From an uncultured virus (IMG/VR IMGVR_UViG_3300033463_000092) (taxonomy: Duplodnaviria > Heunggongvirae > Uroviricota > Caudoviricetes): 64,000 bases of DNA. The stretch's first letter is position 1, and the number at the start of each line of letters is the position of its first letter. The stretch lies in the IMG/VR virus record IMGVR_UViG_3300033463_000092; one strand, 5' to 3'. The notes under the pieces were generated by a model that did no database searches, was not told the origin of the DNA, and saw nothing but the letters and a program-made list of their open reading frames with translations. This document shows positions 7,165 to 59,794 of this stretch, piece after piece. The position numbers and the translations under genes were made by a program.

Positions 7165-7269
7165 CACTATGAACACTTTTCCCCGCCCCCATGGGACAGA
7201 CAGGAAAATGAAATCTCTCCTTTTCTCTGGTTGATATTAAAATATAACAGTGGAATTCAAAAAGTAAAC
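7165..7269 (-). repeat. Promoter-driven hairpin/G-tract element, copy 1
   Basis: CACTATGAACACTTTTCCCCGCCCC..TGGGACAGACAG...CTGGTTGATATT plus promoter; six copies in the window. Confidence 0.9.
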
Positions 7270-7286
7270 CGCATCATCACTCTTAA

Positions 7287-7985
7287 TCAAAGTTTTCTTT
7301 GGCTTTGATCAAACCTTTTTGAAAATTCAATAGAATTATCAGCAGGATATTGATCACCGTCTTTTGCATATTTGGACATATCTTCAATTTCAAACTTTGC
7401 AATTTCTTCTTCAGCTTTATCGAGCATTTTGATCATAACACGATCGGAAATCCCAATTTTGATTTTTTTGATAAAGGCGCATTTTACAGCTCCAGAAGTT
7501 GCAGTCAAAATTTCATAGCTTTCAGGAATTTCAACCCCATAATCATTGACCTTCTGATAATTTTTAGTCATTTCCATTCTGTACGAAACATTCGTTGGGC
7601 CAGGATGATATAATACATCAATCCTCAAAGAAGAGTTTGCATCTGTTCCATTGTGACGGAAAACTTCAGTAATACAAATGGATTTATAACATTCAGCAAA
7701 ATGATCTTTCCAAAGAAGAATTGGATCACGGAAAGAATAAGGATTGACAAATGTGCCAAGGTAAGCAGTAGACACAAATTCAGATTTGCTAAAAGAAATT
7801 TTGCCATGAGACCCATTTCGAAAAACACGATATCCACGTTTGAACAACTCATCGGTTATTCTTTTCACTTGTTCGGCAATTTCAGGAGTGGACCAAGAAG
7901 ATTTAATGATGTTTCCATTAGAATAACGAGGTGCATCAATTTCGGTGAATTCATCTTGAAACATTTTGTCAATACGGGTATTCAT
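7287..7985 (-). CDS. Hypothetical protein flanked by ~99-bp direct repeats
   Basis: GAAAGGA SD before MNTRID; own promoter. Confidence 0.75.
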   Translation of the reverse strand: MNTRIDKMFQDEFTEIDAPRYSNGNIIKSSWSTPEIAEQVKRITDELFKRGYRVFRNGSHGKISFSKSEFVSTAYLGTFVNPYSFRDPILLWKDHFAECYKSICITEVFRHNGTDANSSLRIDVLYHPGPTNVSYRMEMTKNYQKVNDYGVEIPESYEILTATSGAVKCAFIKKIKIGISDRVMIKMLDKAEEEIAKFEIEDMSKYAKDGDQYPADNSIEFSKRFDQSQRKL

Positions 7986-8068
7986 AAGTTTCCTTTCTTT
8001 TATTTTGTTATTAAAATATAACATTTGATTTTAAAAAGTAAACACTTTTTGAAAGGAAAATCTTTGAT

Positions 8069-8166
8069 CACTATGAACACTTTTCCCCGCCCCTTTGGGA
8101 CAGACAGCGATTAAATAAATCGTCTGGTTGATATTAAATTATAACATCTCAATTCAAAAAGTAAAC
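8069..8166 (-). repeat. Promoter-driven hairpin/G-tract element, copy 2
   Basis: Same core as 7165..7269. Confidence 0.9.
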
Positions 8167-8216
8167 GGAAAAAAGAAAAAAAAAATGGAGTCTAAAAAAC
8201 TCCATGATCATTAAAA

Positions 8217-8307
8217 TGGCGGAGGCAACTGGATTCGAACCAGTGGGCAGCTTTCGCCACCGGATGTTTTCGAGACATCTGCCTTAAACCAACTCAGCCA
8301 TGCCTCC
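8217..8307 (-). tRNA. tRNA-Ser(CGA)
   Basis: Cloverleaf; GATGT-CT CGA AA-ACATC, long variable arm, encoded CCA. Confidence 0.95.
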
Positions 8308-8347
8308 GTTTATTTTTAATATAACATCATTTATTTATTCGTAAACT

Positions 8348-8998
8348 TTAGTCCCCATTTCCGCTTATCGAAGGAAGTTTTCCCATAGCTGCAACAATTG
8401 CTCTATTAAAACTCCTAATAATTGGAACTAAAGGAACTACAAACATAATAGTAAATGGAATTGACAACAGTACAAGTTTAATAATCATCATTGGGACCGG
8501 AAGTACTTCAGTAGGAGCTGCCATCATAACTCCATTTTGCCAAGGATAATATGCAACCATAAACGACGATCCACCCCAAATACATTGCATATAATCATAA
8601 TACCATCTAACGATGATCATTCCGTAGTGAAAATCGGTTTCCCAGGGGACAACATAATTTTGAATAAAATTTTTACAAAATACAGAATTTGCTGCTCCAT
8701 GAAAAGTAAGAATACCCATCAAAACTGTCTGAAAGTATGCCCATAAGGAAAGAACAGTAGATACTCCAGCGAAAGGAAGCATAATAATAAAAGCCAAAAC
8801 CTTTCCAAGAAATCCAAAAACTCCTTCACCCTTTGCAAGTAAATTGATTAAATTGTTAAAGGTTAAATACATAAACCCTTCCCAAATTAGCCAAGGAATG
8901 TAAACGGAACAAAAAAATACAGGTAGTGCAATTACAGCCCAAAGAATCCAAGAAAAGATGAAAGTGATTGCAGCTCCAATGAATACTATCAGTGGCAT
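8348..8998 (-). CDS. Multi-pass membrane protein
   Basis: Several long hydrophobic segments; promoter and AAGGAG. Confidence 0.8.
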   Translation of the reverse strand: MPLIVFIGAAITFIFSWILWAVIALPVFFCSVYIPWLIWEGFMYLTFNNLINLLAKGEGVFGFLGKVLAFIIMLPFAGVSTVLSLWAYFQTVLMGILTFHGAANSVFCKNFIQNYVVPWETDFHYGMIIVRWYYDYMQCIWGGSSFMVAYYPWQNGVMMAAPTEVLPVPMMIIKLVLLSIPFTIMFVVPLVPIIRSFNRAIVAAMGKLPSISGNGD

Positions 8999-9062
8999 TT
9001 TAATCTCCTTTATTTTTAAGGTTATTAAAATATAACTTTTTTGAAATAAAAGTAAACTGATA

Positions 9063-12440: not shown

Positions 12441-12983
12441 TTACTTCATCACAAACGTAAAGAAGGAATTATTGATAAATTTTGTCTGTTCAACAGTAAA
12501 TCCATTGAAATTTTCAAGAATCTTCTGCCAAACCTCTTCTGCAAAATCTTTCATTCCAACTTCTCTACCACGAAGTTCAAGTACAATCTTTACTTTACAA
12601 TTATCCGCAATAAACTTCTTTACATGTTCAACTTTTGTATTAAGGTCATTGTCTGCAATATTTACATGAAATTTGATTTCTTTCATTTTCTGCTGAAATG
12701 CTTTTTGTCTCTTTTCTTGATCCTTTTTAGCTTTCTTTTGTTCATACAGAAATTTTTGCATATCAACAAGCTTGACGATTTCGAGATTTTCAGAAGGCCT
12801 TGCATTGACAACAAGAATGTCTTTTTCATAATTATCAGCAAGATCATTCATTGCACTGTACGAATGTCTTACATCACCCGAATTCTGAAAGTCTCCAACA
12901 ATTTGAAACTTTTCATTTCCAAATTCTTTGAAAGTAAAATCTTTTTCAATGTAACCATTTCCAGACTTGAAGAAAATCTTCAT
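12441..12983 (-). CDS. infC: Translation initiation factor IF-3
   Basis: KEIKFHVNIADNDLNTKVEHVKKFI...KVKIVLELRGRE matches the IF3 C-domain; basic linker present. Confidence 0.9.
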   Translation of the reverse strand: MKIFFKSGNGYIEKDFTFKEFGNEKFQIVGDFQNSGDVRHSYSAMNDLADNYEKDILVVNARPSENLEIVKLVDMQKFLYEQKKAKKDQEKRQKAFQQKMKEIKFHVNIADNDLNTKVEHVKKFIADNCKVKIVLELRGREVGMKDFAEEVWQKILENFNGFTVEQTKFINNSFFTFVMK

Positions 12984-24492: not shown

Positions 24493-24625
24493 TTTTTCTC
24501 CTTATAATTTATGGTTGGTTGTTATTATAATATAACGGCGGAATTCAAAAAGTAAACTTAAATTTAGAAAAACTCCTTTTCTCTGGTTGATATTGAAATA
24601 TAACATCTTAACTTAAAAAGTAAAC

Positions 24626-36163: not shown

Positions 36164-36508
36164 ATATTATATAATAAGGTAACAGTAGAAAATTTGAATT
36201 GAATTACTTCTTTATTTAATGTGTTTTAATTAATGAAGTTACACCAAGTATTGATGGAATTTTATTTTGAATTATTTTGAATTCAATTCAAAATTTGATT
36301 TGTAGCAATGAGAAAGTGATTTTGGAAATGATCAATGGTATTCTTTGATACCATGTTTTCATTTGAAAAATAAAGGATGCTGATATTAAAAATATAACAT
36401 GCAAAGTGAAAAAGTAAACTGAAAATCAAAGAAAAATCAAAAATAAATGCAAAATAAAAATCAGGATCAAGTTTACTTTTCCATTGTATATGTTAAAGAA
36501 ACTTTGTA

Positions 36509-36613
36509 CACTATGAACACTTTTCCCCGCCCCTTTGGGACAGACAGGAAAATGAACTCTCTCCTTTTCTCTGGTTGATATTAAAATATAACACGATCGA
36601 TGTGATAGTAAAC
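36509..36613 (-). repeat. Promoter-driven hairpin/G-tract element, copy 3 (at the transcription divergence point)
   Basis: Same core as copy 1. Confidence 0.9.
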
Positions 36614-36684
36614 TTAAGTTTACTTTTAAGTGATCTTAGTTATATTCATAATAGTTAATTCATTAAACGAAAGGAATACGAAAA

Positions 36685-44521: not shown

Positions 44522-44633
44522 TGGCTTCGGCCTTCAGATGGTTGAATAGGGATTGTTGTTGGCCTGAATGATTTAAGATCCGTTACCTCCTTTCAATCTT
44601 AGATCAGCTTCAACCATCTGAAGGCCGAAGCCA
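44522..44633 (+). ncRNA. 3'-UTR structured RNA motif, copy C, closed by a perfect 25-bp inverted repeat
   Basis: 44522..44546 and 44609..44633 are exact reverse complements; they enclose TAGG-GATTGTTGTTGG-CCTG and a hairpin with loop containing CCTCCTTTC. Confidence 0.65.
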
Positions 44634-44756
44634 CTTTACAAACTTTACAGTAGCTGAAACAGAAATGAAGTCAATGCAGTCTATGCGGACTTTGAATATT
44701 CAACTTTAAGTTCAAATTTTCAACTTTAAGTTCAAAACATATAAGGAGAAAATAAA

Positions 44757-45032
44757 ATGAATCCAACTGAAGTTCCTTTTTCAATCAATGAAAATTTTGA
44801 TCCTCTTAAGCAGTCACCTGAATTTCGTTACCGTCTTTTGGATCGTCTTCGTTCAGACTGCGAATACTTTTTTGGAAACGGTCATCGAAATGTCAAATAC
44901 CTTTGGGGACAAGATCCTCGTACTCACATCTCTTTGATGAGGAAGCTCTATTCTTCTTTTGATATTACTGAAAGACCTGAATGGATTGATCTTGATCTCA
45001 TTTCAGAATATGAAAATCGTTTCCTTGACTGA
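44757..45032 (+). CDS. LPD11-like domain protein
   Basis: YRLLDRLRSDCEYF...LWG...HISLMRKLY...PEWI. Confidence 0.75.
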   Translation: MNPTEVPFSINENFDPLKQSPEFRYRLLDRLRSDCEYFFGNGHRNVKYLWGQDPRTHISLMRKLYSSFDITERPEWIDLDLISEYENRFLD

Positions 45033-45095
45033 GTTTACTTTTTAGTCATTCCTGTTATATTTTAATATCACCACCAAATAAAAGGAGAATATATT

Positions 45096-45314
45096 ATGGA
45101 ATTCAGAATCAACGACTACATTTATCAGGAAATGATCAACCGTACCACGCTTCATGAAAACGGCCTTGCTGAAATTCGTGCAAAATCCGGCGAACGTATT
45201 ATTATCTACTGTGGAAAGAACATCAAAGATTTTCCTGCAAAACTTTGTCATCTGGCTTATGATTTTTTTGAGCAGATCTATGATGAGATCTTTGACGAAC
45301 TTCATCCCTATTAA
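45096..45314 (+). CDS. Hypothetical protein ending IFDELHPY
   Basis: Promoter and SD. Confidence 0.7.
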   Translation: MEFRINDYIYQEMINRTTLHENGLAEIRAKSGERIIIYCGKNIKDFPAKLCHLAYDFFEQIYDEIFDELHPY

Positions 45315-45647
45315 GTTACATTCAAAGGAGATAAAGCTATGCTTAACAAAGACACTTTGGAACCCGGTCAGCCGTTTTACTACATTTTGAATGGAATTCA
45401 GGAATGGGAAAAGTGCAATTACGAAATTGCAAAGTTCTATTGGAATCCGAGATGTGGTGATCTCTTTGATGATCGGAAAATGTTCATCACCTTTGAGGAA
45501 GCTCTCTCAAAAGTGAAAGGTCTTCAGTCGGTTCATTAAACCGCCTTATTAGAATATAACATTGACCATGAAAAAGTAAACCAAAAATCAAAGACAATTC
45601 AAAGAAAAATGCATATTTTTTCACTTGGTCAAAACATGGGCTTGGTG

Positions 45648-45745
45648 CACTTTTCCCCGCCCCTCTGGGACAGACAGGATTAAAAGGTCCTCCTTGTAAC
45701 CTCTGGTTGATATTAAAATATAACATAAATGACAAAAAAGTAAAC
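45648..45745 (-). repeat. Promoter-driven hairpin/G-tract element, copy 4
   Basis: Same core; distal end diverged. Confidence 0.88.
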
Positions 45746-45780
45746 CCGGATTACTTCGGGTTTTTCTCTTTTTCTGAGGT

Positions 45781-46179
45781 TTAGAAGGAGGGATCGCGGT
45801 ATTCGTCGCGGCAGTTGAAGGCGAGGTTGATAGGCTCTCCGTGCTTCTTCGCATCATAGTCGATCCAATTGCTGGGGAGATGAGCTCTCCACTTGCCACG
45901 GAACCACCGAACGTACCGAGTGTAGTCCTTGTGGAGGAGAGGCTGTCCGTTCTCGTCGGTGTAGCGATAGGTCTCATCTCCGTATCCCTTACCGATGTTG
46001 ACTGCAGCATAACGGGCCATGGTGAAGCCTTTGTGGTCGGGGTCCACTTCGATGATCCGCCAAGCACTGCGGTCGGTCCAGTGGAGCTCGGTAACATCCA
46101 TGCCGACTTTCGGCTCCGTGAATCCGGGATTGTTCATCATCCAGTTGGTTAGGGAGCCTGTGTCTTTCATGAGCTTCAT
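45781..46179 (-). CDS. Hypothetical protein ending YRDPSF (paralog of 46455..46823)
   Basis: GAAAGGA SD and own promoter. Confidence 0.8.
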   Translation of the reverse strand: MKLMKDTGSLTNWMMNNPGFTEPKVGMDVTELHWTDRSAWRIIEVDPDHKGFTMARYAAVNIGKGYGDETYRYTDENGQPLLHKDYTRYVRWFRGKWRAHLPSNWIDYDAKKHGEPINLAFNCRDEYRDPSF

Positions 46180-46269
46180 TAGCAATCCTTTCTTTTTGAT
46201 TGGTGGTTTGTATTATAGTATAACAGAAAACTTGAGTTTGTAAACCGAGCAAAGCTAAAAAACTTTGAT

Positions 46270-46376
46270 CGCTATGAACACTTTTCCCCGCCCCTCTGGG
46301 ACAGACAGGATTAAAAGGTCCTCCTTGTAACCTCTGGTTGATATTTTAATATAACAGAGATCAGTGCTTTGTAAAC
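46270..46376 (-). repeat. Promoter-driven hairpin/G-tract element, copy 5
   Basis: Core identical to copy 4. Confidence 0.9.
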
Positions 46377-46454
46377 TAAAGTAACGATCGGTTTACTTTT
46401 TCAGTCAGCCTGTTATATTTCAATATCACCACCAAATAAAAGGAGATCATCACC

Positions 46455-46823
46455 ATGAAAAACGCCATCACCCCCGCCTTCCTGAAGAAGCATCCCAACT
46501 TCACCGTTCCCCAGGTCGGGATGGACTTCACCGTCTCTTATGGCTCCGATTGCTACGCTTGGCGAATTGTCAAGGTAGACGAGGATTGCAAAGGCTTCTT
46601 TGCTCAGGCCTATCGGCCTATCAACAAAGCGGTTTGGCCGGTTCAGGATTGGCAGTTCGAGGACGAGAACGGCAATCCCCGCCTTTGTGGAGAACCGATT
46701 CACTGCAAATACTTTTATGGCCATTGGATCAAGGACCAAGATAGTCGGTATTTCGGAGAAGTTCGGGAACGGATCAATCCCCACTTCGGCAGCCGCTGCT
46801 ACTATCAGGACCCCTCCTTCTAA
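46455..46823 (+). CDS. Hypothetical protein ending YQDPSF
   Basis: Promoter and SD; shares PxVGMD and AWRI with 45781..46179. Confidence 0.8.
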   Translation: MKNAITPAFLKKHPNFTVPQVGMDFTVSYGSDCYAWRIVKVDEDCKGFFAQAYRPINKAVWPVQDWQFEDENGNPRLCGEPIHCKYFYGHWIKDQDSRYFGEVRERINPHFGSRCYYQDPSF

Positions 46824-46918
46824 ACCTCGGAAAAAAAGAAAAACCCGGAGCAATCCGGGTTTACTTTTCGGTCATTCCTGTTATATTTCAATACAACCAA
46901 ACGAAAGGACCACCTACC

Positions 46919-47185
46919 ATGAGAATCGTCGTCGTAAAAGAATCCTCCAATTCAGGTCGTGAAATTTTCGGTCAGTTCAAAACTATCGCCGATGCTCAAG
47001 CCTTCATCAAAGCCTCCGCCGAAGAGACCAAAGAGATGTACAAACATTCCGACCCTACCATCATGGAGTCCTGGGAACACGCCGACACGGTTCTGGAACT
47101 GTTCATCCACGATCGGTTCGAATCCACGGACCACAAGTTTTCTTGGACCATCGAAAATCTGATGAAACCTCAGTTTACTTTTTGA
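46919..47185 (+). CDS. Hypothetical protein (FGxFKT family)
   Basis: Promoter and SD; last codons FTF come from the next promoter. Confidence 0.75.
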   Translation: MRIVVVKESSNSGREIFGQFKTIADAQAFIKASAEETKEMYKHSDPTIMESWEHADTVLELFIHDRFESTDHKFSWTIENLMKPQFTF

Positions 47186-47247
47186 ATCCAGGTGTTATAT
47201 TATAATATCAAAACCACCACAACAACCAATCTGAAAGGAAACACACC

Positions 47248-47667
47248 ATGAAGAAACTCACCATCAAGTTTGCCGACACCACCACCGAAGCCCGTTCCGA
47301 AGCCAATATGTGGACCATCCTCCGCGGCTTCAGGGACAAACTCGCCACTCTCGTCGCCGATGACGAAGGTCCCGGAACCGAATGCCCCGACCACGCCCTG
47401 GTCACCGATGAGGAAGGGAACCTCTTCAAAGAGATCGTCTTCCGCCTCAACAGCCATCGCAAAATTGAAATGGTCAATCTTGTGAAGGCTACCTGCCGCA
47501 GGGCGGTCGAAAAGGCCCGGAAAGCCGCCAAGGAAGCCGCCGAAAAGTTGGCCGCCAAGAAAGCCCGTAAGGCCGAGGCCAACCGTCGGTACCGTGAACG
47601 GAAGAAGGCTGCCGCGTCCGCCGCGGCTGTAGTTCCGACCGAAGAGGCTGCTCCGACCGAAGCCTAA
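47248..47667 (+). CDS. Hypothetical protein with Ala/Lys-rich tail (family of 44096)
   Basis: 3' half nearly identical to 60769..61200. Confidence 0.8.
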   Translation: MKKLTIKFADTTTEARSEANMWTILRGFRDKLATLVADDEGPGTECPDHALVTDEEGNLFKEIVFRLNSHRKIEMVNLVKATCRRAVEKARKAAKEAAEKLAAKKARKAEANRRYRERKKAAASAAAVVPTEEAAPTEA

Positions 47668-48283
47668 TGCCCAACATCACCGAGGACCGGACTGCGGAAT
47701 CCCGGTTTACTTTCCGGGATTCTTGGTTATAATATAATATCCGCTACCACTCCAACCAACAGAAAGGAATCTTCAGCATGAAGAAGTATCGCATCGCCGC
47801 CTACGAACGGTCCTACGGCCGCACTCGGGTCTATTCCGAGATCGTGGAAGCTCCTAATCCCGCCGCCGCCCGTGCCATCTTCGAACAGCGGAATCGGAGG
47901 TCCTGGATCACCCACATCACCGAGCTCTAATCAGCTTTTCGGTAAACCGAGAAACCGGGAGGTTTCTCGGTTTACTTTTCAGTCATTCGTGTTATATTAT
48001 AATACAATCAAAATCGAAAGGACTGCACCAATGAAGCTCTTCAACGTTATCTATACTGTCGCCGATGCCAATTACCGTACCTGCATCCTGACCGTCTATG
48101 CCAAGAACGAAACCGAGGCCGAGGCTTCTGCTCGTGTTTACCTTCAGGAGGAGCTCGGAGTCCGCAAGGGTCAGCTCACCGTAGTCTCAATTCTTCCCAC
48201 GCTCTGCTGAAAAATTGGTTTACGAATCACCAATCCCAGTTATATTATAATATCAACAACCACCAACGAAAGGACCACTCACC

Positions 48284-48658
48284 ATGATCACTCTCCTCAC
48301 CTCCCTCGTTTCCGACAACATCGGCCTCTCCGACGAAGACATCCAGGTCAAATCCGTCTCGGCGGCTTGGAATCGGATCCGTGAGATCAGGGACACCACC
48401 GATCCTCAGATCCTCAACGGAGTCGAACTTCGGATCACCCAGGACGAACCCTCGGATCGGCTTCCCAACATCATTCGATTCACCCTGAATTCCAAGGGAA
48501 AGATCGAATTCAAGGATGCGGCCAAAGTGAAAAAGACCGAGGCGGAACTCACCGGCGGGACGATCACCTTCATCAACCCCGAAACGGGAAAGACCAAAGA
48601 AGTTCAGTGTGTGGATCCTTCCACCTTTCCCAAGCCCAAGGTGGCGGAAGTTCGGTAA
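48284..48658 (+). CDS. Hypothetical protein (QVKSxSAAWN subfamily)
   Basis: Paralog of 62926..63351. Confidence 0.8.
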   Translation: MITLLTSLVSDNIGLSDEDIQVKSVSAAWNRIREIRDTTDPQILNGVELRITQDEPSDRLPNIIRFTLNSKGKIEFKDAAKVKKTEAELTGGTITFINPETGKTKEVQCVDPSTFPKPKVAEVR

Positions 48659-48958
48659 CTAACTGACTCAAAGGGAGGCTAACAACCTCCCTTTCCAAAA
48701 GGTTTACATTCCTCTCTATCCTGTTATATTATAATATCGACAACAGAAAGGAACATCTCAATGAAGCACTACACCATCACTTATTCCGCGGCCTTCGCCA
48801 TCGGCAAGTTTATCCACGGTCAGTATAAGACGGATGCTTATTCCGAGTATGATGCAATCGACAATCTCGTCGGTTTTGTGTCCTGTTTCGGACTGCTCCG
48901 CAAGCTGGATATTCAGACCGTTTTCGCCCGCTAATTCAAACTGAAAGGAACATATATC

Positions 48959-49243
48959 ATGAACGAACTTCCTCCTCCCCAATACATCATCCTTATCAAG
49001 GAAGGTGACGAAGAACTTCATCCTCTTTTCATCGGCACCCGGGAAGAATGCAAGTCCATAATGTTCGATGTCGTCCGTCCTCATCCTTCCGAGCTCATCA
49101 TGAATGTCAAGGATCTTGACTCCGACTTCGGTTGGCATTACACCTACGAAAAGCTGAAAGGCGGAAAGATGGTCAAAATGGAAATTGCTTGTTACAATCT
49201 TCCCGGAAAGACCGTTGATGAAGCCGCCTCTTGTATCTATTGA
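48959..49243 (+). CDS. Hypothetical protein
   Basis: GAAAGGA SD. Confidence 0.7.
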   Translation: MNELPPPQYIILIKEGDEELHPLFIGTREECKSIMFDVVRPHPSELIMNVKDLDSDFGWHYTYEKLKGGKMVKMEIACYNLPGKTVDEAASCIY

Positions 49244-49692
49244 TCCTTTCTGTTGGAGTTGAAGAGAATGATGAATCCAACTTACAGACCAAGGCCACCG
49301 CCTTAACCGATCCAAATTAAGTCGTAGTGTTTAGAAGGAGCCGTAATGATCGAGGCTCCTTCTTTTTGTTTACTTTTTAGACTTCCGTGTTATAATTAAA
49401 TACAAGAAGAAAGGAAGATTCAATGAAATATCTTGTAGACATAATGATCTATCGTCATCAGCCAACTCATCGAGTGATAGACGCGGAAGAACTTCCTATG
49501 CTGATAATGGAAGCTAAGAAAACCTTAGGAGCAGAACTCATCGTCCACAAACAGAATCAAAAAGGGAACTTCATTCGCATCGGGTGTTTTCAAATCGGAA
49601 AGCAGCCTATCCATGTCCGTAGGGCTTATGGTCTCGGAGTGGATTATTCAGCGGACGATGTAATTTTGAATTAGGAAGAAAGGAACTTTAAT

Positions 49693-49980
49693 ATGATAGA
49701 GCAAAAAGCCACCTTGAGAGTAGGGACCAAAAGCAGGGTCACCATTCCGGAGAGATTCTTTGACTCTATTAACGAAAACGGTGGATTCGAGAAGAAAGCT
49801 TACCTCGTTCTGAAATCATCCGCAAGAAAGAGGTTCTATCAGCATCCAGTGAGGAGGGTCTCCCTGACGGAATTCAATCCCGGCGATTTTCTTGTCATCA
49901 GCTACATCCCTTCCAGAGGTGCCTTCTTTAAGGTGGAAAAGCATGTCCTTTCTGACGTTTTGGTTTACTTTTTGAATTGA
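49693..49980 (+). CDS. Hypothetical protein
   Basis: GAAAGGA SD; C-terminus overlaps the next promoter. Confidence 0.65.
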   Translation: MIEQKATLRVGTKSRVTIPERFFDSINENGGFEKKAYLVLKSSARKRFYQHPVRRVSLTEFNPGDFLVISYIPSRGAFFKVEKHVLSDVLVYFLN

Positions 49981-50050
49981 GATGTTATAATATAATATCT
50001 GAAACAATAAACGAAGTTGTGATTACTCTAATAACGAAGGAGCTTTAAAA

Positions 50051-50404
50051 ATGTACATCATTGGAAAAAAGATGAATGAACAAGCAACCTCCATGGGTTG
50101 GTTTTGTGCATGGTTGAAGGAACAATATCAAAATAACCTTGTTTTCCTTGACCATCGGAATGATGCTAAGATTAAAATGTTGAAAACTGACGATCATGGA
50201 AAAAATATCGGCTATTTTTCTGGAAAGTACGTTGAAAGTTTTCTCTACAATGAATGGATTAATTATAATCGATTCATGGTTTATTATAATGAAATTAAAG
50301 ATATTGGACCTGATGCCTTCCTAAAGATGATTCATGATGAATGGAAAAATATGATGTCCGTTGTCACCATTGAGGATGATGGATTGAGGATAAAAAAATA
50401 CTAA
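50051..50404 (+). CDS. Hypothetical protein
   Basis: Promoter and AAGGAG SD. Confidence 0.7.
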   Translation: MYIIGKKMNEQATSMGWFCAWLKEQYQNNLVFLDHRNDAKIKMLKTDDHGKNIGYFSGKYVESFLYNEWINYNRFMVYYNEIKDIGPDAFLKMIHDEWKNMMSVVTIEDDGLRIKKY

Positions 50405-51111
50405 AAGTAAAAGATAAAAAATTGTCTTTTAAAGATGTTTAAACATCATATTAGACAAAAAAATAACTTTTATTTTTAAGTTTACTTTTTGAATTGAGAT
50501 GTTATAATATAATATCTGAAACAACAAACGAAAGGAACTCTTCAACATGGCTCAGTTCACCGTAGATACTCTCGATCACAACCGTCATCAGCTCACTCGG
50601 TCTGCCAAGAGGTTCGGAAGCTTCTTGGAGGCTCAGAACTTTGCCAAGAAGCTGGCGGACATGCAAATCCTCGCCGCGGAAGTCAAAGGGAAGACTCTCA
50701 AGCTTCAGCACACCGAGAGCGGCTTCAGAGCAGGAAACATGGAATTCATCGCTGTGGAGCTCTGAACAATGAAAAGTTTCATCGTCAAAACTGAAGTAGG
50801 AGAATTGATCCTTACTCTTCGGTACTTCCCCGTTTCTGAAAAGATCAAACTTTATCTTCATGGAGTTGTGATCAATGAATCGAATCAGATCACCTTTTAT
50901 GAAGATAATGCTACTCTTTTTCTCAACCCAAACTACGAATCAGTTCTCAAAGGTGCTAAGAATCTAATCAATTATCATTTCATATGGGAGTCATCCTCTC
51001 AGGAGGAATTTGCTCAGTGGCTGTCTCATTTACTTTCAACTGAAAGTTTAGAAGGAATTTAAGTTTACATTCACAAGAATCGTGTTAAATTATAAATACG
51101 AAAAGAAACGT

Positions 51112-51377
51112 TCCATCGTAGCTCAATGGTAGAGTCACCGGCTGTAAAAACATCATTGGTGTATAGGCAGCTCCAGAAGGAAACTTTTGGATGGACAAGG
51201 CGCTAAGTCGGGGAAGCCCAATGGAATCCCGAGCTAGCAAGGATGCAAATCCTGGGCAAGTGTAGAGACTTTACACGCCTCACCTAAATCGAAAGACATG
51301 GTGAAGAGAAAGTCCAATTCAACGAAAGTTGATATGTAACCGGTTGGTTGCTGGTCCGAGTCCAGCCGATGGAGCCA
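51112..51377 (+). tRNA. tRNA-Asn(GTT) interrupted by a group I intron (exons 51112..51145 and 51337..51377)
   Basis: Splicing gives ACCGG-CT GT|T AA-CCGGT, TCCATCG/CGATGGA acceptor, G73 and CCA. Confidence 0.88.
51146..51336 (+). ncRNA. Group I intron, 191 nt, no ORF
   Basis: U|...G boundaries; P1 GCTGT/GCAGC with U.G; P3 AGGCG/CGCCT; P4 TCGGG/CCCGA; P7 GACTTT/AAAGTC; P8 TCACC/GGTGA. Confidence 0.88.
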
Positions 51378-51517
51378 TTTTTATATATGCTGGGTGTCAA
51401 GCTGCTAACTTGACTTTATTATAAATTCTATTCCTTGAATTTATAAACTAGCATTTTAATTTATAAATATAATTGTTGTTAGCAGCAACGATAAAGGTAA
51501 AATAAGGAAAAATTAAA

Positions 51518-52264
51518 ATGAAGAAGTGCAAATTTTGTAAGTCTGAATTCGATGGTTCAGGCTCTTTTTGTTCTAGTGAATGTCATGGGAAATATGCTGC
51601 ATCTTTTGTAGAAAATCATAAATGCAATTTTAAAAGAAAGTGTGCACCTTATGGAAGATGGACATGTTCAAGATGTGGAATGATATTCGAAACACGAGCA
51701 AAATTATTTGAACATACTAAAAGCCATAGATTGAATCCTAATGAAAAAAGCGCATGGAATAAAGGTTTAACTAAAGAAACCGATCCTAGAATAATGAAAG
51801 GAGCGGAGACTTTTTCAAAAAGATATAAAGAAGGTATTATCGTTCCATCATTTTTAGGAAAACATTTTACAGAGGAACAAAGAAAAAAGATTTCAGACTC
51901 AATGAAACAGGCTCATGCTGAAGGAAGAGCTCATAATATTGGACAAAGTCGTTGGAATAATGAGCCATCATATCCTGAAAAGTTTTTTATAAAAGTAATT
52001 GACAATGAGTTTGAAAATAAAAATTATCAAAGAGAGTTTCCTTTCTTTAAATATTCATTAGATTTTGCATGGGTTGAAGAGAAAAAAGTTCTTGAGATAG
52101 ATGGAGAACAACATGAAAGATTTGAGGAATACAAAGAACGTGATAAAAAGAAAGACGAACTTTTACTGAAAAATGGTTGGAAAGTATTAAGAATAAAATG
52201 GAAAGATGTAATGAATGATTCAAAGTATTGGATCAAAGTTGCAAAATCTTTCATTGATTCTTAA
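51518..52264 (+). CDS. Free-standing putative homing endonuclease (Zn fingers, NUMOD3-like repeat, DUF559/Vsr-like nuclease)
   Basis: CxxC motifs, WNKGLTKETD, GKHFTEEQRKKIS, LDFA...LEIDGEQH...RDxxKD...GWKVLRIKW; TATAAATA at 51462..51469. Confidence 0.8.
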   Translation: MKKCKFCKSEFDGSGSFCSSECHGKYAASFVENHKCNFKRKCAPYGRWTCSRCGMIFETRAKLFEHTKSHRLNPNEKSAWNKGLTKETDPRIMKGAETFSKRYKEGIIVPSFLGKHFTEEQRKKISDSMKQAHAEGRAHNIGQSRWNNEPSYPEKFFIKVIDNEFENKNYQREFPFFKYSLDFAWVEEKKVLEIDGEQHERFEEYKERDKKKDELLLKNGWKVLRIKWKDVMNDSKYWIKVAKSFIDS

Positions 52265-52309
52265 TTCTTATTTACTTTTTCATAAATGAAGTTATATTAA
52301 AAATATTAA

Positions 52310-52384
52310 CGGGGTGTGGGCCAGTCTGGTTAGGTCGCCTGCCTTGGGCGCAGGATGTCGGAAGTTCGAATCTTCTCGCCCCGA
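52310..52384 (+). tRNA. tRNA-Pro(TGG), CCA not encoded
   Basis: CCTGC-CT TGG GC-GCAGG cloverleaf. Confidence 0.92.
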
Positions 52385-52398
52385 TATTTGTTTTACAG

Positions 52399-52473
52399 TG
52401 CGGGATAGAGCAGCGGTAGCTCACGATCCTCATAAGTTCGTTGTCGGTGGTTCGACTCCATCTCCCGCTACCA
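52399..52473 (+). tRNA. tRNA-Met(CAT), initiator-like, second copy
   Basis: U1.U72 mismatch; CGATC-CT CAT AA-GTTCG; CCA. Confidence 0.9.
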
Positions 52474-52895
52474 TTTTTTATACCACTTTTTCATTTCCTC
52501 TTTCCTTTTACGATTCTCTTTGATATTATTCTTGATTCTTTGCACTATAAGAGGGCTGAACAAAATAAGATCCAAAACAATGGAAATGATTAGGTAATAT
52601 AGTATGATCTTTAGTAGCATGCACTTCTCCTTTTGGTTCTTCAATTCAAAAAATTATTTATCGGTTTAGGTTTACTTTTTGAATCTTGTTGTTATATTTT
52701 AATATCAGAAAGGAGAATTTGAATATGTCAACTCGTGAATACAAAACTCAAGCTTTTCAGGCCTATTGGAAAAACTACAACAGACTCTTCAAACCTTGCG
52801 GCCTCGTCTTCAACATTTTCACCATCTTTTTGCTGTTCCTCTTCGGCCTTTTCATTCTGATGCTTTTCATCTAACTTTCAAAGGAGACTCCAATC

Positions 52896-53240
52896 ATGGC
52901 TACCATCACAGATGCCAACGCTGCTCTGGTCCTCGACCTCAAGAAAACTTACACCATCGTCTATCGTAACCTTCGGAAGGAACAGACCGACGAGGAAAGG
53001 CAGAAAGGACTTCGTCATCCCAAACCGATGAAGATCAAGATCTTGAACGGTCTCTATCACAACTATCCTCAGGACAGTTGGATCGGTCACGACAGTGAAG
53101 ATGGCTTTTGTGATCCTCTGGGTGAAAGGGTCTACTTCGATGGAGAAAAAGTCCCGGACTACATCCCTCAGAAGGAGATTCTTTGGATCGGCACAGATGA
53201 GGATTGGCAGAATTTTCTCAAAGCAGAGTTTACTTTTTGA
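52896..53240 (+). CDS. Hypothetical protein
   Basis: AAGGAG SD; ends FTF inside the next promoter. Confidence 0.75.
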   Translation: MATITDANAALVLDLKKTYTIVYRNLRKEQTDEERQKGLRHPKPMKIKILNGLYHNYPQDSWIGHDSEDGFCDPLGERVYFDGEKVPDYIPQKEILWIGTDEDWQNFLKAEFTF

Positions 53241-53574
53241 GCCTCTCAGTTATACTATAATATCACCGCCAATCAAAAAGAAAGGATTTGAAATGAAGGT
53301 CAAAGAACTCAAAGATATGCTCTCCCAATACCCCGATGACATGGAGGTAGAATTCTACACTTTTCTCAAGGAACCTCTTGACATCATATGGGACAACGGT
53401 CCCGGACAGGTCATCATGGAGGACATCAGCTTGGACCAACGTGAGACAAGAGATGGGAAGAAGGAAAAGTTCGTTTCCATTTTGGTAGGATGATTAGGAA
53501 TAGTTGACTTGGTTTACTTTTCAGTCATCCTTGTTATATTTTAATAATCACTGACAATTGAAAGGAACTTAGAT

Positions 53575-53814
53575 ATGGATCAGCTTACCCCTCATGAAAC
53601 AGACACCCTCGATCTCTCCCCTTACTTTCTCACCACTGCGGCGGCATTCTTGCTCCTCAAGCTTTTCGGGGTAGTCAATTGGAGTTGGTGGATCGTCTTG
53701 GCTCCTTTTTATGCTCCTTTCGTCATCGTTCTCCTCACGGCAGGCATACTTTACCTTACCACTTGGATGATATACGGCCGCCCAATGGTCAGCTTCTCCT
53801 TCACTTGGAAGTGA
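53575..53814 (+). CDS. Small membrane protein (LLKLxGxxNWSWWxVxAP pattern)
   Basis: Two TM segments; promoter and SD. Confidence 0.7.
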   Translation: MDQLTPHETDTLDLSPYFLTTAAAFLLLKLFGVVNWSWWIVLAPFYAPFVIVLLTAGILYLTTWMIYGRPMVSFSFTWK

Positions 53815-54244
53815 GTTTACTTTTCAGACATCCTTGTTATAATTAAATACAACAAGAAAGGATTTCTATCATGGCTCTCACTCTCACCATTCTTTTCTAC
53901 GGCAACCTCATTCTCGGAGGTCTGTTCCTCATCGGCTGTTTCATCTACGGATTCATGGAAGAAGTTTAAGATAAGGAGATAAAAAATGAAAAAGTTCATC
54001 ATCTCGGCTCATACTTTCCCCACCACCGGCGGCACAACTTGGTTCGTCCGAACCATCCCGGCTAAGACCAAAGAGCTTGCCATCAAGGCCTTCTTCGCTC
54101 ACTTTGGCAAACTGAATGCCATCGATCGGATCGTCGAAGCCAAAGAAAACGGTGATCCGAGGAACGACTGATCTTGGTTTACTTTTCGGTCATCTCTGTT
54201 ATATTTTAATATAACCACCAACCAAAAAGAAAGGAATTTCCACC

Positions 54245-54493
54245 ATGACCAAGAAGACCGCAATCATGAATTTCGTCGAAGAAAACGGTGGGACCGTTCG
54301 CCGTAAGGACCTGGTCCGCTTCATCTGCGAACTCAACGGAAATGTTTATGATCCCATCCTTCACCGCGGATATTACTCCGCCGCTCTCTGCCCCACTTCC
54401 ATTTGGAGAGACGGTCATCTTCTCAAACCCTCCAAGAACGAACCCAGGTATTTGATCCGTTCCGGGCGTGGTCTCTACACCGTCTGCCGTTAA
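54245..54493 (+). CDS. Hypothetical protein (IMxFVE...RR family)
   Basis: Promoter and SD. Confidence 0.78.
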   Translation: MTKKTAIMNFVEENGGTVRRKDLVRFICELNGNVYDPILHRGYYSAALCPTSIWRDGHLLKPSKNEPRYLIRSGRGLYTVCR

Positions 54494-54844
54494 TCACACA
54501 GTTAACTGGGAACTCAAAAGAGTTCCCAGTTCTTTCACTTTTACAAAGAAAGGGATCTCTTTATTATGCTTTACAAAGTGTTTCTTGAATTTGATCATAC
54601 CAAGACCTGGCTTCCTTACTCCAAAGAGGCTTTTGTGGAATTTGATCCTTCTTTACCCATAAGTGTTCCAACTCAGTTTTGGCGGTGGGTTTGGAAGCAG
54701 CATGGCAGCGATGTGGTCTCCGGAATGTGTTGGCCGGCCAAAGAAGAAGACAAACTTTCCGTAGGATAATTCGGTTTACTTTCTCGGACTTTTGGTTATA
54801 CTATAATATCAACCACAACCAATCAAACCGAAAGGAAACTAAAT

Positions 54845-55102
54845 ATGATGTACTGTGTCGTCAAGAGCTGTCCCGGCGGGGATGTTTTTTACGGTCCCTA
54901 TTCCTCTGTGGAGGATGCCGAAGCCTTCATCAAGGATGATGCCAAGGCGGAAAAGGCTTCCCTGATGGAGTATACTGTCAACGAGGAGACCGAGACCCAC
55001 TTCCCCTTCTATCGGCTCACCCTGAAGCTCACCCAGCTCTGGGACGGAAAGCCCTTCTCCTGGAATTGGAATGTCCGTTTTCTCCTCCCTTCGGAGAAGT
55101 GA
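54845..55102 (+). CDS. Hypothetical protein (xGPY/F family)
   Basis: Promoter and SD. Confidence 0.72.
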   Translation: MMYCVVKSCPGGDVFYGPYSSVEDAEAFIKDDAKAEKASLMEYTVNEETETHFPFYRLTLKLTQLWDGKPFSWNWNVRFLLPSEK

Positions 55103-55370
55103 TTCTGCCAGAAAGGACTACAGAATGCATACCTACCGCTTTATCTTCACCCTAGATGATGCTCCTTCTACCTACCATAGCGACATCCTTGCTTTCGACC
55201 GCAAAGAGGCTGGAAAGATGTGGAAGGAAGTCAAAGCCATGATACCTTTCAGCCGCCGCAGAGTCCACATCGTCAAAGTCATTCCTCTGTCTTGATATCT
55301 CTAAACTTGGTTTACTTTTTGATGGTTGAGGTTATATTATAATACAACCACTAATGAAAGGAACCTCAAA

Positions 55371-55511
55371 ATGAAGAAGACCAAAGAGCACATCATGATC
55401 GACCTGGAAGTTCGTCACAGTTGGGGAAGCTGCCGTCCCTACACTCGGATTCACAAATCAAAGAAAGCCTACAACCGCAAGGACCATTCTTGGCGGAACA
55501 TGGAGGACTGA
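55371..55511 (+). CDS. Small basic protein, possibly ArfA-like
   Basis: Promoter and SD; RPYTRIHKSKKAYNRK. Confidence 0.55.
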   Translation: MKKTKEHIMIDLEVRHSWGSCRPYTRIHKSKKAYNRKDHSWRNMED

Positions 55512-55763
55512 AAAATGGTAAAAATTGTTATCAATACCGAAGGAGCTGCTTTCGCCGATGCCGCAGGCAATTACACGAACTTCTCTGTCAATTTGGAAGT
55601 AGCTGACATCCTCCGCAAGTTGGCGGATCGCTTGACTCTCGTCCCGGATGCCATGACAGGAAGAGAGGTTCCCATCATGGATGGAAACGGAAACAAGATC
55701 GGGACTTTCATCTCCACCAAAGAAGAATAGTTTACTTCTAAACAACTTCTGTTATAATAAAAT

Positions 55764-56037
55764 AAATCGGAATTCACTGAGTAGGTGGGATGGCCACTGG
55801 AAGGTGATTAAGAGAAAGTATCGCTCGTCTCATTAAAAGAGAGACCGTGACGTCCGCCATAAAGAGTGGAATGATTCGACCAAGAGCCTCTACAGATTCT
55901 CTCCGATCTTTTTATCGGCAAAAGAGAGACCCGGGTCTCTTGAGCAGCGATTAGTGTAACGAAGAGAGCACACCAGTTCGGAAGCTGGAGGCGGAGGCGC
56001 AAACCCTTCATCGCATTTACGCTCTTGCCGATTTTTT
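55764..56037 (+). ncRNA. Putative ~270-nt multibranched structured RNA
   Basis: Own promoter; nested long-range stems AAATCGG/CCGATTT, GTAGGTG/CATTTAC, GAAGG/CCTTC, TCCGCC/GGCGGA; ends in U tract; no SD-led ORF. Confidence 0.6.
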
Positions 56038-56095
56038 TGTTTACTTTTCAGTCATTCTTGTTATATTATAATACAACAAATAAAAGGATATCAAA

Positions 56096-56368
56096 ATGAA
56101 TCAGAAGCTCGCCGAAAGAATCCAATCCGAATTGCTGGAAAAAGAAAATCTTTTCAAATCCATTGACTCGCCATCCGATCTCGTTCCTCTCCCTGTCCGC
56201 AAAGTTCTTTTCGACCAAGCTTGGTCAGACGGCCATGCTTACGGAGATCATGAAGTCACGGCTCTCTACGACAAGTACTTGGAGCTGCAGGAACATATCC
56301 AAGCATGGTATGCGGACTACGAGGACACTTGCAAAAAACTTCAAGCCGCTTCGGATCTGTGGAAGTAA
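56096..56368 (+). CDS. Hypothetical protein
   Basis: Promoter and SD. Confidence 0.72.
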   Translation: MNQKLAERIQSELLEKENLFKSIDSPSDLVPLPVRKVLFDQAWSDGHAYGDHEVTALYDKYLELQEHIQAWYADYEDTCKKLQAASDLWK

Positions 56369-56696
56369 GTTTACTTTTCGGACAAGTCTGTTATATTATA
56401 ATATACCCAACGGAAAGGAATCTAAAATGGCTAAGATCAAACGAATTTGCGGAAACTGCTGCTACATGGACACGAACAACCACTGCTTCGCAGAAGGTAC
56501 CGAAGGTTCTTCCGGCCCTTATCAGTGTGCTTGCGGTCTGTTTGATCCCTGGGACAATCCGAAGTACAGGGAGCAGCCCAAGGAAAAGTAATCAGCTCTT
56601 TAGGACCGATCTAACCAATCGGTCCTTTTTCTTGGTTTACTTTTCAGATAAATCCGTTATATTATAATATCAACAACAACCGAAAGGAATCTAAAA

Positions 56697-56987
56697 ATGC
56701 TTCTCGCCAACAAAGCTTACATTCTCTTCAAAGCCACCTTCTCCGCCGATCCTTCGGTCACTCTGGAAGATCGGGAATATCTTCCGCTCATCCGCCGTGC
56801 CAAACGGTACATTCTCGACCATTTGGCCAAGGAAAAGTCCTCTTTCACCATCACCGCTTCGGTTTGTTTCACTCCTCCCACCCCGTCTCAGCCTCTGACC
56901 AAGATGTCCACCTTCGTCTATTACCCCGAGGGCAACCCCGCGGCGGTCAGTCTCCGCCAGCGTTTCTTCCTCGTCCCCGAACTTTAA
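56697..56987 (+). CDS. Hypothetical protein
   Basis: Promoter and SD. Confidence 0.72.
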   Translation: MLLANKAYILFKATFSADPSVTLEDREYLPLIRRAKRYILDHLAKEKSSFTITASVCFTPPTPSQPLTKMSTFVYYPEGNPAAVSLRQRFFLVPEL

Positions 56988-57344
56988 GGTTTACTTTTCG
57001 GACAATCCTGTTATATTTTAATACAACTAACGGAAAGGATTACTTCAATGCTTCACAAATTCGTCCTCACCTTCCACGTCAACACGGAATTCGGCAAGCG
57101 TCGTGACCATGCTATCGTCCTCGCTCTCAATCCTCAGGATGCCATCGAAAAGTTCAAAGAAAGGGTCCCCGGCATGGGGTACCTCTGGGGAAGCCATCAC
57201 GTGGAGTCTTACTCCGCCTTCCTCGTCCTTCCCATTGAAAAGACCAGATTTGCCAAATGGGCCTGAGGAATCGGTTTACTTCCCAGACAATCCTGTTATA
57301 TTGTAATATCCACAACAACCACCCCAACCGAAAGGAAACACACC

Positions 57345-57632
57345 ATGATCACCGCAAAATTCTATGTCATCACCAGGTTCTCCGTCATCAGAGACACCGT
57401 CTACAAGGTCAGCAGCGAACAGACCCCTTACTCCGACTTCGGTGAGGCCTACGAAGCCATGCGGCAGGAGGCAATGGAGTGGTTCAAAGCATTCTCCAAT
57501 CCCACCGCTTGTTTGGAGAGTACGACCAACGGAATCATCTTCAAGTACCGGCTCCAGGGTATGAATCCCCGGGAGTGGGTGACCCACTCCGAGCAGTGGG
57601 TCCTTTCAGAGGTCGAAGCCCGCCTCTTTTGA
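57345..57632 (+). CDS. Hypothetical protein
   Basis: Promoter, SD and terminator. Confidence 0.72.
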   Translation: MITAKFYVITRFSVIRDTVYKVSSEQTPYSDFGEAYEAMRQEAMEWFKAFSNPTACLESTTNGIIFKYRLQGMNPREWVTHSEQWVLSEVEARLF

Positions 57633-57739
57633 AAGAGACCAACCGAGGAGATCGGCTCCCCAACCGATCTCCTTGTTTACTTTTCGAACATCTCTGTTAT
57701 ATTATAATACAACCAACCGCCTAAACGAAAGGAGACTCT

Positions 57740-57988
57740 ATGGCTACCAACTATACCCGTCTCGAACGTTACATGATCGAAGCTTGTTTGAACGATGAAC
57801 TTGATGTGATGTACGGCAACTTCACCGTAAACCAAGTGGAACGGATCACCGTGGATGCCTCTGACATCATCAAGAAGTGCACCCCGGAACTGTACGAGCG
57901 GTACTTCAAGGATTACTGCGAACGGAACTCCATCCTCATCAAAAGAGAATCCAATCAGACCATTTATCTGGAAGTCAACCCAGATTGA
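57740..57988 (+). CDS. Hypothetical protein
   Basis: Promoter and SD. Confidence 0.72.
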   Translation: MATNYTRLERYMIEACLNDELDVMYGNFTVNQVERITVDASDIIKKCTPELYERYFKDYCERNSILIKRESNQTIYLEVNPD

Positions 57989-58707
57989 GTTTTACTTTTT
58001 GAATTCAGGTGTTATATTATAACATCCACCAACCAAAAGGAAAAAGTGAAAATGAGTGAAAAGATTCTTACCGTGAACCTGGATTCTTGTTGGTCCAACT
58101 CTGCTCGTGTGAAAATGTTTGTCGACCAGCTGAAGGACAAAAATGTCGAAGGGTCCTTCCACGATGGCGGAGATGACGGTTCCTCCTGGACTTTGAAAGG
58201 CACCAAAGAGAATCTGGTGAAAGCCATCAATGCCCATTGGCTTCTTAACGGTTTTTTATCCTCCAGAAGATGTGATGGACCAAGAGACGATGAGTCTCCT
58301 CGGTTTTGAGGTTTCCAAAGAAGGCAAAATTGATCTGATGTAAGGAGTATCTTTCAATGCACTTCATCATCATCTTTGCCGTTATCCTCGCTGCCGCTGC
58401 TATCATCTCCGTTGGAGTTAAAATGTATCAAGTCGAGAAGGCTTTTCGGCAGCAAACCAAAGAGAGCTCAATTCTCCATTATTGAAGTTCTAAATCTAGA
58501 CTTCGGCTTCACTTCAACCAAAGTGAAGCCGTTTCAGCTAACTTAAAGTTGAAACATCAAAGCTTAAGACACTAACTTTGTAGTTGTGATTGAAGTTTTC
58601 AACTTCTCTTTGAAATAGATTACTCCAAATTAAGTTCAGTGAAGCTTAAGTTCTGTCATCTATTTTAGAATAAATAATTTCATGTTTTGAACTGAAGGAA
58701 AACTTAT

Positions 58708-59235
58708 ATGAAAGTTGATGACATATTCAAAAAAGTTTATTTGGAAAGCATTATCAAAGAATCTGCTGAAGAAGATGAAAACATGCACGGTGATATGGAT
58801 GATGTTGATTTCAAGAATGGCAAAGATGAAGGCATAAAAGAGATAGATGCTAAATCAGGGTTTCGTTTTGGAGTTGACAACTTTGGCAGATATTATATGA
58901 CTGATAAGGATGGTCTTTGGAAGGATATGAAGATTGAACCTAAGACCAAAACTCAACTTGACGTCCAGAAAATTTTTGATCAGAAAGTGAAAGAGCTTAC
59001 AGAAGAAGATACTTGCTGTGAAGATGTGGATGATAGTAAAATCAACGTTGTGACATCAAGAAGCCTCGATGGTAAAGAATACTTCTTAGGCAGCGATGGG
59101 GAGGATAACTTTTACTTTGCTGAATTTAGTCCAGATGGCTGGAAACAAATTTATGGAGTTAAAACCACTTTAGATGCTGAAAGCATGTTTGATAGAATGA
59201 TTGAAAACTGCCACAAGCCTTGGGGGGGCAGATGA
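58708..59235 (+). CDS. Acidic protein with an internal repeat, possible late/virion-internal protein
   Basis: TAAATA upstream, no early promoter; FGVDNFGRYY and LGSDGEDNFY repeats. Confidence 0.65.
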   Translation: MKVDDIFKKVYLESIIKESAEEDENMHGDMDDVDFKNGKDEGIKEIDAKSGFRFGVDNFGRYYMTDKDGLWKDMKIEPKTKTQLDVQKIFDQKVKELTEEDTCCEDVDDSKINVVTSRSLDGKEYFLGSDGEDNFYFAEFSPDGWKQIYGVKTTLDAESMFDRMIENCHKPWGGR

Positions 59236-59394
59236 CGAAGGTGATGATGAAAGTTATGGAGATGATGACGATGATTATGATCCATATGAAGAATTAGCCA
59301 GTCAAGGTATCTTCCCAGGCCGTCATGATGATTGGTGATAAAGTCAAAAATACGGATATAAAAAAGGACCGGGTTCTTCCCGGTCCTTTTTTGT

Positions 59395-59601
59395 TTAGAT
59401 TGCGTTGGAAGGGATGACGATGTCACCCCAGACGATGGTAGGAGAGTCGGTCCGGACGGCGGAGAGCAGGGTGGGTTTCCCGAAGGATGCCTTGACGGCA
59501 TTCCATTTTTTGGTGGCCTCCCGTTTGTTGGGAGCGAGGATGTCCTGCCAGTGGGTGGCCTTGGTGGTAGGGAGGGTGAAGAAGAAGCGGTAGAGTTTCA
59601 T
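59395..59601 (-). CDS. Small protein (YxFxFTL...DIxAxxxxEA family; paralogs at 55125 and 61786)
   Basis: Own promoter and SD on the minus strand. Confidence 0.75.
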   Translation of the reverse strand: MKLYRFFFTLPTTKATHWQDILAPNKREATKKWNAVKASFGKPTLLSAVRTDSPTIVWGDIVIPSNAI

Positions 59602-59687
59602 GAGGAGGTTCCTTTCGGTTGGTGGTTGATATTAAAATATAACGGGGAATCCAAGAAAGTAAACCAAGTTGTCTGAACTTTCAGGTT

Positions 59688-59794
59688 TACTATGAACACT
59701 TTTGGCCGCCCCTCGGGGTCGGCAGGGATTAAAAGGTCCTCCTTTGTTCCACTGGTTGATATTTTAATATAACAGATAGATCAAAAAAGTAAAC
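59688..59794 (-). repeat. Promoter-driven hairpin/G-tract element, copy 6 (divergent, compensatory changes)
   Basis: ACTATGAACACTTTTGGCCGCCCCTCGGGGTCGGCAG...CTGGTTGATATT plus promoter. Confidence 0.85.

Follow-up and report, generated by a model that had tools for sequence, protein, structure and literature searches.

A repeated same-facing promoter-hairpin element of rumen jumbo phages as a possible transcript-primed replication origin

In the plasmid ColE1, a transcript of the host RNA polymerase persists as a hybrid with its template and serves as primer, this RNA II being ~550 nt long (available text of PMC5043065). In phage T4, oriF and oriG combine a promoter with an AT-rich element, oriE, oriF and oriG lie near strand switches, and oriE uses an early promoter; the same review names the rules for R-loops at origins as an open question (available part of PMC3016281). 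Structured early leaders are represented by put of phage HK022, ~70 nt with two stem-loops, in which the stem I duplex, U28, G35 and A64 are conserved (excerpt of PMC9378689), and repeated promoter cassettes by PeSL, where recombination yields mini-circles and chimeric elements (excerpt of PMC2839356). The initiation of replication in large uncultured phages is largely unknown. Here we analyzed a stretch of 64,000 nt from the uncultured virus record IMGVR_UViG_3300033463_000092 (the window), in which an initial annotation had noticed six same-facing units, each an early promoter followed by hairpins and G-tracts, and had proposed a DNA-level role such as replication priming. We found this element to be a real, selected and undescribed feature of a group of rumen jumbo phages; no description of such an element was found among the titles and abstract beginnings of the open-access literature searched. 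Tentatively, we read it as a cis-acting, transcription-coupled element, most likely one that makes a replication primer (an R-loop-type origin), with a decoy or a polymerase-modifying role nearly as likely.

All six copies lay at the annotated places on the minus strand, each preceded at a distance of 6 nt by the -10 region of a GTTTAC-type promoter, and none of the six carried a ribosome site with a start codon, in line with the proposed lack of an open reading frame (ORF). When the sequence was lengthened to 88 kb via overlapping identical contigs, a seventh copy of identical polarity was found ~8.3 kb left of the window. The RNA core of 52–65 nt contains hairpin 1 (CAG, one bulged A or U, at least 3 pairs, a free loop and CUG) and, directly adjoining it, hairpin 2. 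Hairpin 1 had been described as merely variable and turned out to be the best-supported structure of the element. At its first pair after the bulge, 11 distinct hairpins carry G-C (5), C-G (3), U-A (2) and U-G (1), and over seven distinct combinations of arms pairing is complete (21 of 21 positions), where shuffles give 11.4 (p 0.0004, without correction for relatedness). Covariation in the aligned sequences thus supports hairpin 1, and hairpin 2 is predicted only. The G-rich 3' arm of hairpin 2 is unchanged in all six window copies, its 5' arm drifts and barely pairs in the distant relative L062 (-0.5 kcal/mol), and two-sided changes number 0 in seven pairs over 12 sequences. For the six non-window rows the search pattern itself required the G-rich arm, and its invariance in them is therefore no evidence. 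The compensatory change claimed for copy 6 was withdrawn, because it uses the G closing hairpin 1 and because the seventh copy has the identical 5' arm without the partner change. An alternative register of hairpin 2 with a bulged U/A pairs in 98.6% of cells and is preferred in A-type copies only. Folding energy was not exceptional (z -0.25 to -2.51 in eight copies). The leader start ATCAACC, formerly counted as part of the element, is the ordinary beginning of many leaders of the same phage, whereas the 14-nt tail is exact in five of six copies (chance expectation 1.10 matches at up to 2 mismatches), copy 4 ending AAAAGTGCACC without TTCATAG. No hidden peptide with a ribosome site was found in the element.

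Over the extended 88 kb there are ~117 near-identical promoters, 52 leftward and 65 rightward (~97 near-identical early promoters in the window), whose -35 and -10 boxes are similar to the T4-type TTTACW/TAYWAT consensus given in the available text of PMC4122927. The element is driven by 7 of the 52 leftward promoters and by none of the 65 rightward ones (p 0.0027), and in the right arm alone by three of seven leftward and none of 64 rightward promoters. Neither a descriptor scan of 140 promoter-like sites nor a covariance model yielded a plus-strand copy, and the sole plus-strand fuzzy match, at 54868 (three mismatches), carries no other part of the element. Genes point left up to 36.6 kb and right past 36.6 kb. 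Copy 3 lies exactly at this strand switch, as had been noted, and copies 4–6 are located in small islands of leftward orientation; two of these islands restore a divergent pair of promoters. Three copies oppose local gene flow and have little or nothing to express downstream. The claim that the copies point leftward against their neighbors holds only in part, since copies 4, 5 and 6 each precede a leftward promoter, and 5 and 6 also a leftward gene. Fixed polarity, spacing over 68 kb and the missing ORF would be explained as well by a chain of processive transcription complexes, all facing the same way, that draws the genome into the cell or marks stops during entry. We consider this very improbable: ~110 other promoters face both ways, the relatives described below have one exact copy per 52–80 kb contig, and transcription-driven entry is, to our knowledge, a matter of T7 and N4 and not of contractile-tailed phages.

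A metagenome scan gave 55 loci, 11 of which hold the element; five overlap the window's own sequence, the others belong to close strains (L086, L104 and L109) and to more distant uncultured phages (L062, L102 and L103), and the other 44 loci were unrelated. The copy in L062, whose ligase is 74% identical to that of the window (the closest database matches of the ligase being ~29% identical), lies at a strand switch like copy 3 and points into the ligase arm. L062 and copy 3 share a back-to-back -35 box, a downstream opposite -35 box and a second promoter, part of their alignment being common promoter, and the L102 copy lies one gene away from a strand switch. Copy number amounts to seven in 88 kb here and to one exact match each on the 52-kb (L062) and 80-kb (L103) contigs. 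The cores of copies 4 and 5 are identical, and in strain L086 a single chimeric copy is present and the intervening block is missing. Since PeSL recombination makes chimeras (excerpt of PMC2839356) and L086 shows such a chimera, the element might, among ~117 near-identical promoters, be carried along without a function by PeSL-type promoter cassettes that spread through recombination. We give this reading very little credence because hairpin 1 covaries: four pair types at its first variable pair, together with promoters that are intact in all copies of four phages, point to selection.

Searches of collections returned nothing comparable. Rfam 15 gave 11 window matches at the gathering score, all tRNA, and none at the element in L062, L102 or L103; the CRISPR repeats of Rfam, an incomplete repeat set, gave no match over copies 3, 4 and 5 at E up to 10. 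Patterns run on a viral collection returned 0, 17, 41, 1 and 6 loci, none with the element, and protein searches of that collection found no relative. The promoter or hairpin 1 was present in none of 16 matches to GTDB genomes, phage and plasmid BLAST matched only the promoter or AT-rich flanks, and lambdoid phage records did not match the element. A similar hairpin in L004, L007, L010 and L011 (E 0.26–0.6) looks like a gene-end terminator and was set aside, as was a 14-nt resemblance between the element and a CRISPR-type repeat of L091, which was selected by pattern and is broken in copy 6.

The element promoters are shielded from upstream transcription. An upstream terminator is present in five of six copies compared with 43 of 149 other promoters (p 0.011), and in the other four loci an opposite -35 box is found instead; such a back-to-back box occurs at four of ten loci against 11 of 161. 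Behind AAAAGTG, a spacer of 32–100 nt is followed without exception by a same-strand promoter. Spacers have 27% GC compared with 39% ahead of other promoters and are only 32–39 nt long in five of ten. They carry TCAAAG, in either orientation, in six of eight lineages where 0.82 were expected (p 1.3e-5, lineages partly related); the motif may be a DNA site or an arm of a weak third hairpin. GATC enrichment was weak (p 0.016, copies related). An own promoter with a protected 5' end in nine of ten loci would also suit a trans-acting small RNA, a protein decoy or antisense whose dose is raised by copy number, in which the bulged stems bind a host protein and single-stranded AAAAGUG is the recognition or seed site. 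The covarying base of hairpin 1 and G-U pairs that favor the transcribed strand agree with this, as do a copy number that varies between phages, the tRNAs and RNA-repair genes abundant nearby, and the option of pairing hairpin 2 with a bulged A/U, as in hairpin 1. Such a decoy leaves the polarity, the counter-oriented islands and the shared switch position unexplained. A terminator-like end is present in only one of ten copies, which is no difference from the background (48 of 155, p 0.28) and hence a weak objection; neither Rfam families nor CRISPR repeats match over the element, the 16 genome matches include no host copy, and GGA loops are limited to some hairpin 1 types. We regard the small RNA as possible but somewhat doubtful; if real as a decoy, it would be a new phage counter-defence RNA. 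The initial annotation had preferred a cis role to a diffusible RNA, and the latter keeps a place as a possible, less favored reading.

All copies are on the minus strand. Copy 1 (7167..7269) has its promoter at 7269-7236 and its core at 7235-7174, with hairpin 1 at 7229-7201, then hairpin 2 and AAAAGTG, and a tail to 7167; the next promoter is at 7139. Copy 2 (8071..8166; promoter 8166-8133, core 8132-8078) lies behind a tRNA-Ser terminator, and its next promoter is at 8043. At the strand switch, copy 3 (36511..36613; promoter 36613-36580, core 36579-36518) stands back-to-back with a divergent plus-strand promoter (36618..36651), the equivalent of which in L062 is an opposite -35 box. Its minus-strand spacer (36386..36510, 22% GC) contains an opposite-strand -35 box and the TCAAAG motif and aligns with L062, and a second minus-strand promoter at 36419 leads into ~340 nt without ORF. 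This very AT-rich stretch (36040-36385) has a hairpin at 36335-36354 and a direct repeat near 36060-36160. Copy 4 (45641..45745; promoter 45745-45712, core 45711-45648) has a deviant tail and a spacer similar to that of copy 3; the second minus-strand promoter behind it (45581) is followed by no ORF and points toward a rightward gene. That promoter runs antisense into ORF 45339-45539, and its transcript holds a 12-nt complement (45400-45417) to the G/A-rich tail of copy 4. Copy 5 (46272..46376), with the core of copy 4, is back-to-back with a rightward promoter at 46391, and the next leftward promoter (46245) drives ORF 45781-46185. This ORF and 46455-46823 (plus strand) are an inverted paralogous gene pair that flanks copy 5, and the 3' ends of the two genes carry inverted repeats. 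Copy 6 (59690..59794; promoter 59794-59761, core 59760-59697) lies behind a strong terminator, and the next leftward promoter (59664) drives ORF 59395-59601. The unit listed as a truncated copy (24558..24625, minus strand) was upheld in part: the promoter and the first leader part, ATCAACCAG, are present, its hairpin differs, there is no second hairpin, and the next promoter is at 24557.

The window belongs to a large contractile-tailed phage, a tail-sheath domain being located directly left of the window; this domain is the C-terminal part of a 1475-aa protein (L074 1177-5604, minus strand), an unusual length for a sheath. All four sequencing runs that cover half or more of the tested stretch come from bovine gut DNA. 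None of the 12 runs listed with the sequence is an RNA run, which has no bearing on expression, and DNA contigs of four of these 12 runs, compared over 35000-48000, showed strain differences only. The gene content of the window includes 11 tRNA calls, RNA ligases, an NAD ligase, an IF3 homolog and a PolX homolog. The homolog of translation initiation factor IF3 (12441-12983, minus strand; 38 relatives, mostly unnamed proteins) has Rnl1, Rnl2, kinase and HAD RNA-repair genes as neighbors, and the family X DNA polymerase homolog (25847-26800, minus strand) is close to the NAD-dependent ligase. The region 46400-64000 is a crowded array of short GC-rich genes with one promoter apiece, and a gene family repeated at 44096, 47248, 48284, 60769 and 62839 in the GC-rich array is expanded in L062 and L103 too. 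Among further promoter-driven units, an apparently non-coding structured one at 55730-56030 (plus strand) is kept in L103 (14360-14576, minus strand; 73% over 198 nt) and has no Rfam match, and promoters at 10430, 12439, 30721, 31103, 40799 and 51063 lead to tRNA-like or unassigned non-coding sequence. The segments 30938-31009 and 41005-41092 resemble tRNAs with insertions, which ARAGORN missed or called oddly.

Two adjacent stems that follow an early promoter within ~65 nt recall HK022 put and suggest a leader of the put or pause type that would modify RNA polymerase, by antitermination or factor loading, to read into the promoter-poor left arm. Copy 3 and the L062 copy head a whole arm, and the seventh copy precedes a long stretch without an early promoter. 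The invariant block ends with G-10, G-2, U-1 and G+1, the stem ending 10–11 nt upstream, and four of six positions of the pause consensus GGnnnnnntgYR (available text of PMC9974457) are matched; such a geometry occurs in one of 110 other leaders, but arises in 12% of tail shuffles. Because another promoter follows 32–100 nt after every copy, downstream genes need no read-through. Moreover, copies 4, 5 and 6 have behind them either no gene or one or two small ones and then collide head-on with rightward genes, and a Pfam scan of 103 + 29 ORFs found no NusG-like or other antiterminator domain. putL and putR of HK022 are alike in size (~60–70 nt), in their adjacent stems and in their position immediately after early promoters that diverge, whereas the element has seven same-facing copies, a promoter at once after each and no Rfam or phage match, and its membership in HK022 put is unproven. 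Similarly, ops and the Bacteroides opsX (excerpt of PMC11685472) share a leader hairpin and then a consensus-like pause ending at U with G following, whereas no NusG paralog was found in the window and no operon lies behind three of the copies. We consider a put-like or pause leader unlikely; if true as put-like, it would be a protein-free antiterminator outside lambdoid phages.

We return to the primer, the steps of which, from transcription and pausing to hybrid formation and priming, we infer as follows. Host RNA polymerase would start at the insulated phage early promoter, as its consensus suggests, and the first 52–65 nt would fold into the bulged hairpin and the second hairpin. The polymerase might slow right after the G-rich stretch, a weakly indicated step. 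By analogy with ColE1 and T4 oriF, the G-rich RNA arm, held loosely by G-U pairs, would then switch into a persistent hybrid with the C-rich template; the hybrid would open the AT-rich spacer, and RNA cut or released near the A-run would offer a 3' end for leftward DNA synthesis. The strand-switch copy is probably the oldest, and the others may be duplicates that arose by recombination between repeated promoters, probably spread by a PeSL-type process. When the stability of RNA:DNA over DNA:DNA was estimated by nearest neighbors over 15 nt, the 10 copies took ranks 1–10 of 170 leaders (-6.3 to -8.1 kcal/mol), and the origin-proximal tract of ColE1 scored -7.85 on this scale. Besides this similar hybrid preference, the G-rich heptamer of the element occurs once in ColE1 (NC_001371, L131), where it forms the 3' arm of a stem and an A-run follows at a short distance. 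We take this A-run to be the RNA/DNA switch point, which is not annotated in NC_001371. The plasmid collection showed no overall similarity to the element, model R1 gave no match in L131, and a search for an RNA I-like antisense found, downstream in copy 3, copy 6 and L062, a -35 box on the opposite strand but no good -10 box. The primer reading best explains the polarity, the gene-poor islands and the fixed arm, and the proposed DNA-level role gains modest support from polarity, from the switch shared with L062, from the hybrid-prone strand and from the AT-rich spacer.

Several observations weigh against this primer reading. The polarity p weakens to 0.017, or to 0.07 for either direction, when the copies are collapsed to five events, because they are not independent, and copies 1–2 and 4–5 lie <1 kb apart. 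The L103 copy lies inside, and is co-oriented with, the GC-rich array that the window copies oppose, its genes being homologous; a landmark at the L103 contig end was rejected as not homologous (85 of 200 shuffles equally good). GC skew, proposed as a check, marks nothing: it flips at copy 3 and in L062 but simply tracks the coding strand, and there is no flip at L103. A primer does not account for hairpin 1 unless this is recognized by a protein or by the polymerase, and hairpin 2 is a competitor of the hybrid. G content alone suffices to produce the ranking by hybrid preference, which nonetheless shows what selection keeps. The ColE1 heptamer match is 7 nt long, was spotted after the fact and has 0.68 expected per plasmid; G-tract and A-run are 2 nt apart in the element and 9 nt apart in ColE1. 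Size is a further obstacle, ColE1 RNA II being a single-copy transcript of ~550 nt under antisense RNA I control and the element ~60 nt in seven copies. Finally, the available part of PMC3016281 reports for T4 origins no shared sequence motif and no specific sequence needed for the R-loop.

By the tests made, the element is outside ColE1, CSB II, PeSL, Racr and any Rfam family. A CSB II-type quadruplex primer would keep two G-tracts in all copies; the second G-tract is broken in copy 6 and L103, which counts against the CSB II analogy of the initial annotation. Racr, a solitary CRISPR repeat RNA that acts as a mimic of such a repeat (excerpt of PMC10651486), was rejected for want of a match between the incomplete CRISPR repeat set of Rfam and copies 3, 4 and 5. 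PeSL cassettes are alike as repeated, recombining terminator-promoter units with a TTTACW-type -35 box and account for the surrounding array and the copy spread (excerpts of PMC2839356 and PMC4122927), but the PeSL hairpin precedes the promoter and a gene follows, whereas here a conserved structured RNA follows the promoter, with no ribosome site and start codon in six of six copies. T4 origins are similar in being several per genome, in the order of promoter and AT-rich DNA, and in lying in some cases near strand switches; they need no structured RNA, whereas the copies have a shared sequence and a covarying fold. With its natural variants, the ~60-nt element can be synthesized and tested with purified polymerase, the phage not being needed. 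It is conceivable, if rather doubtful, that this repeated, conserved and structured ~60-nt transcript represents a minimal ColE1-like primer, a ninth of the size of RNA II, and its copies a polar array of recognizable origins unlike the motif-free origins of T4. If so, the element would be the smallest structured primer RNA and would offer an origin signature that can be searched for.

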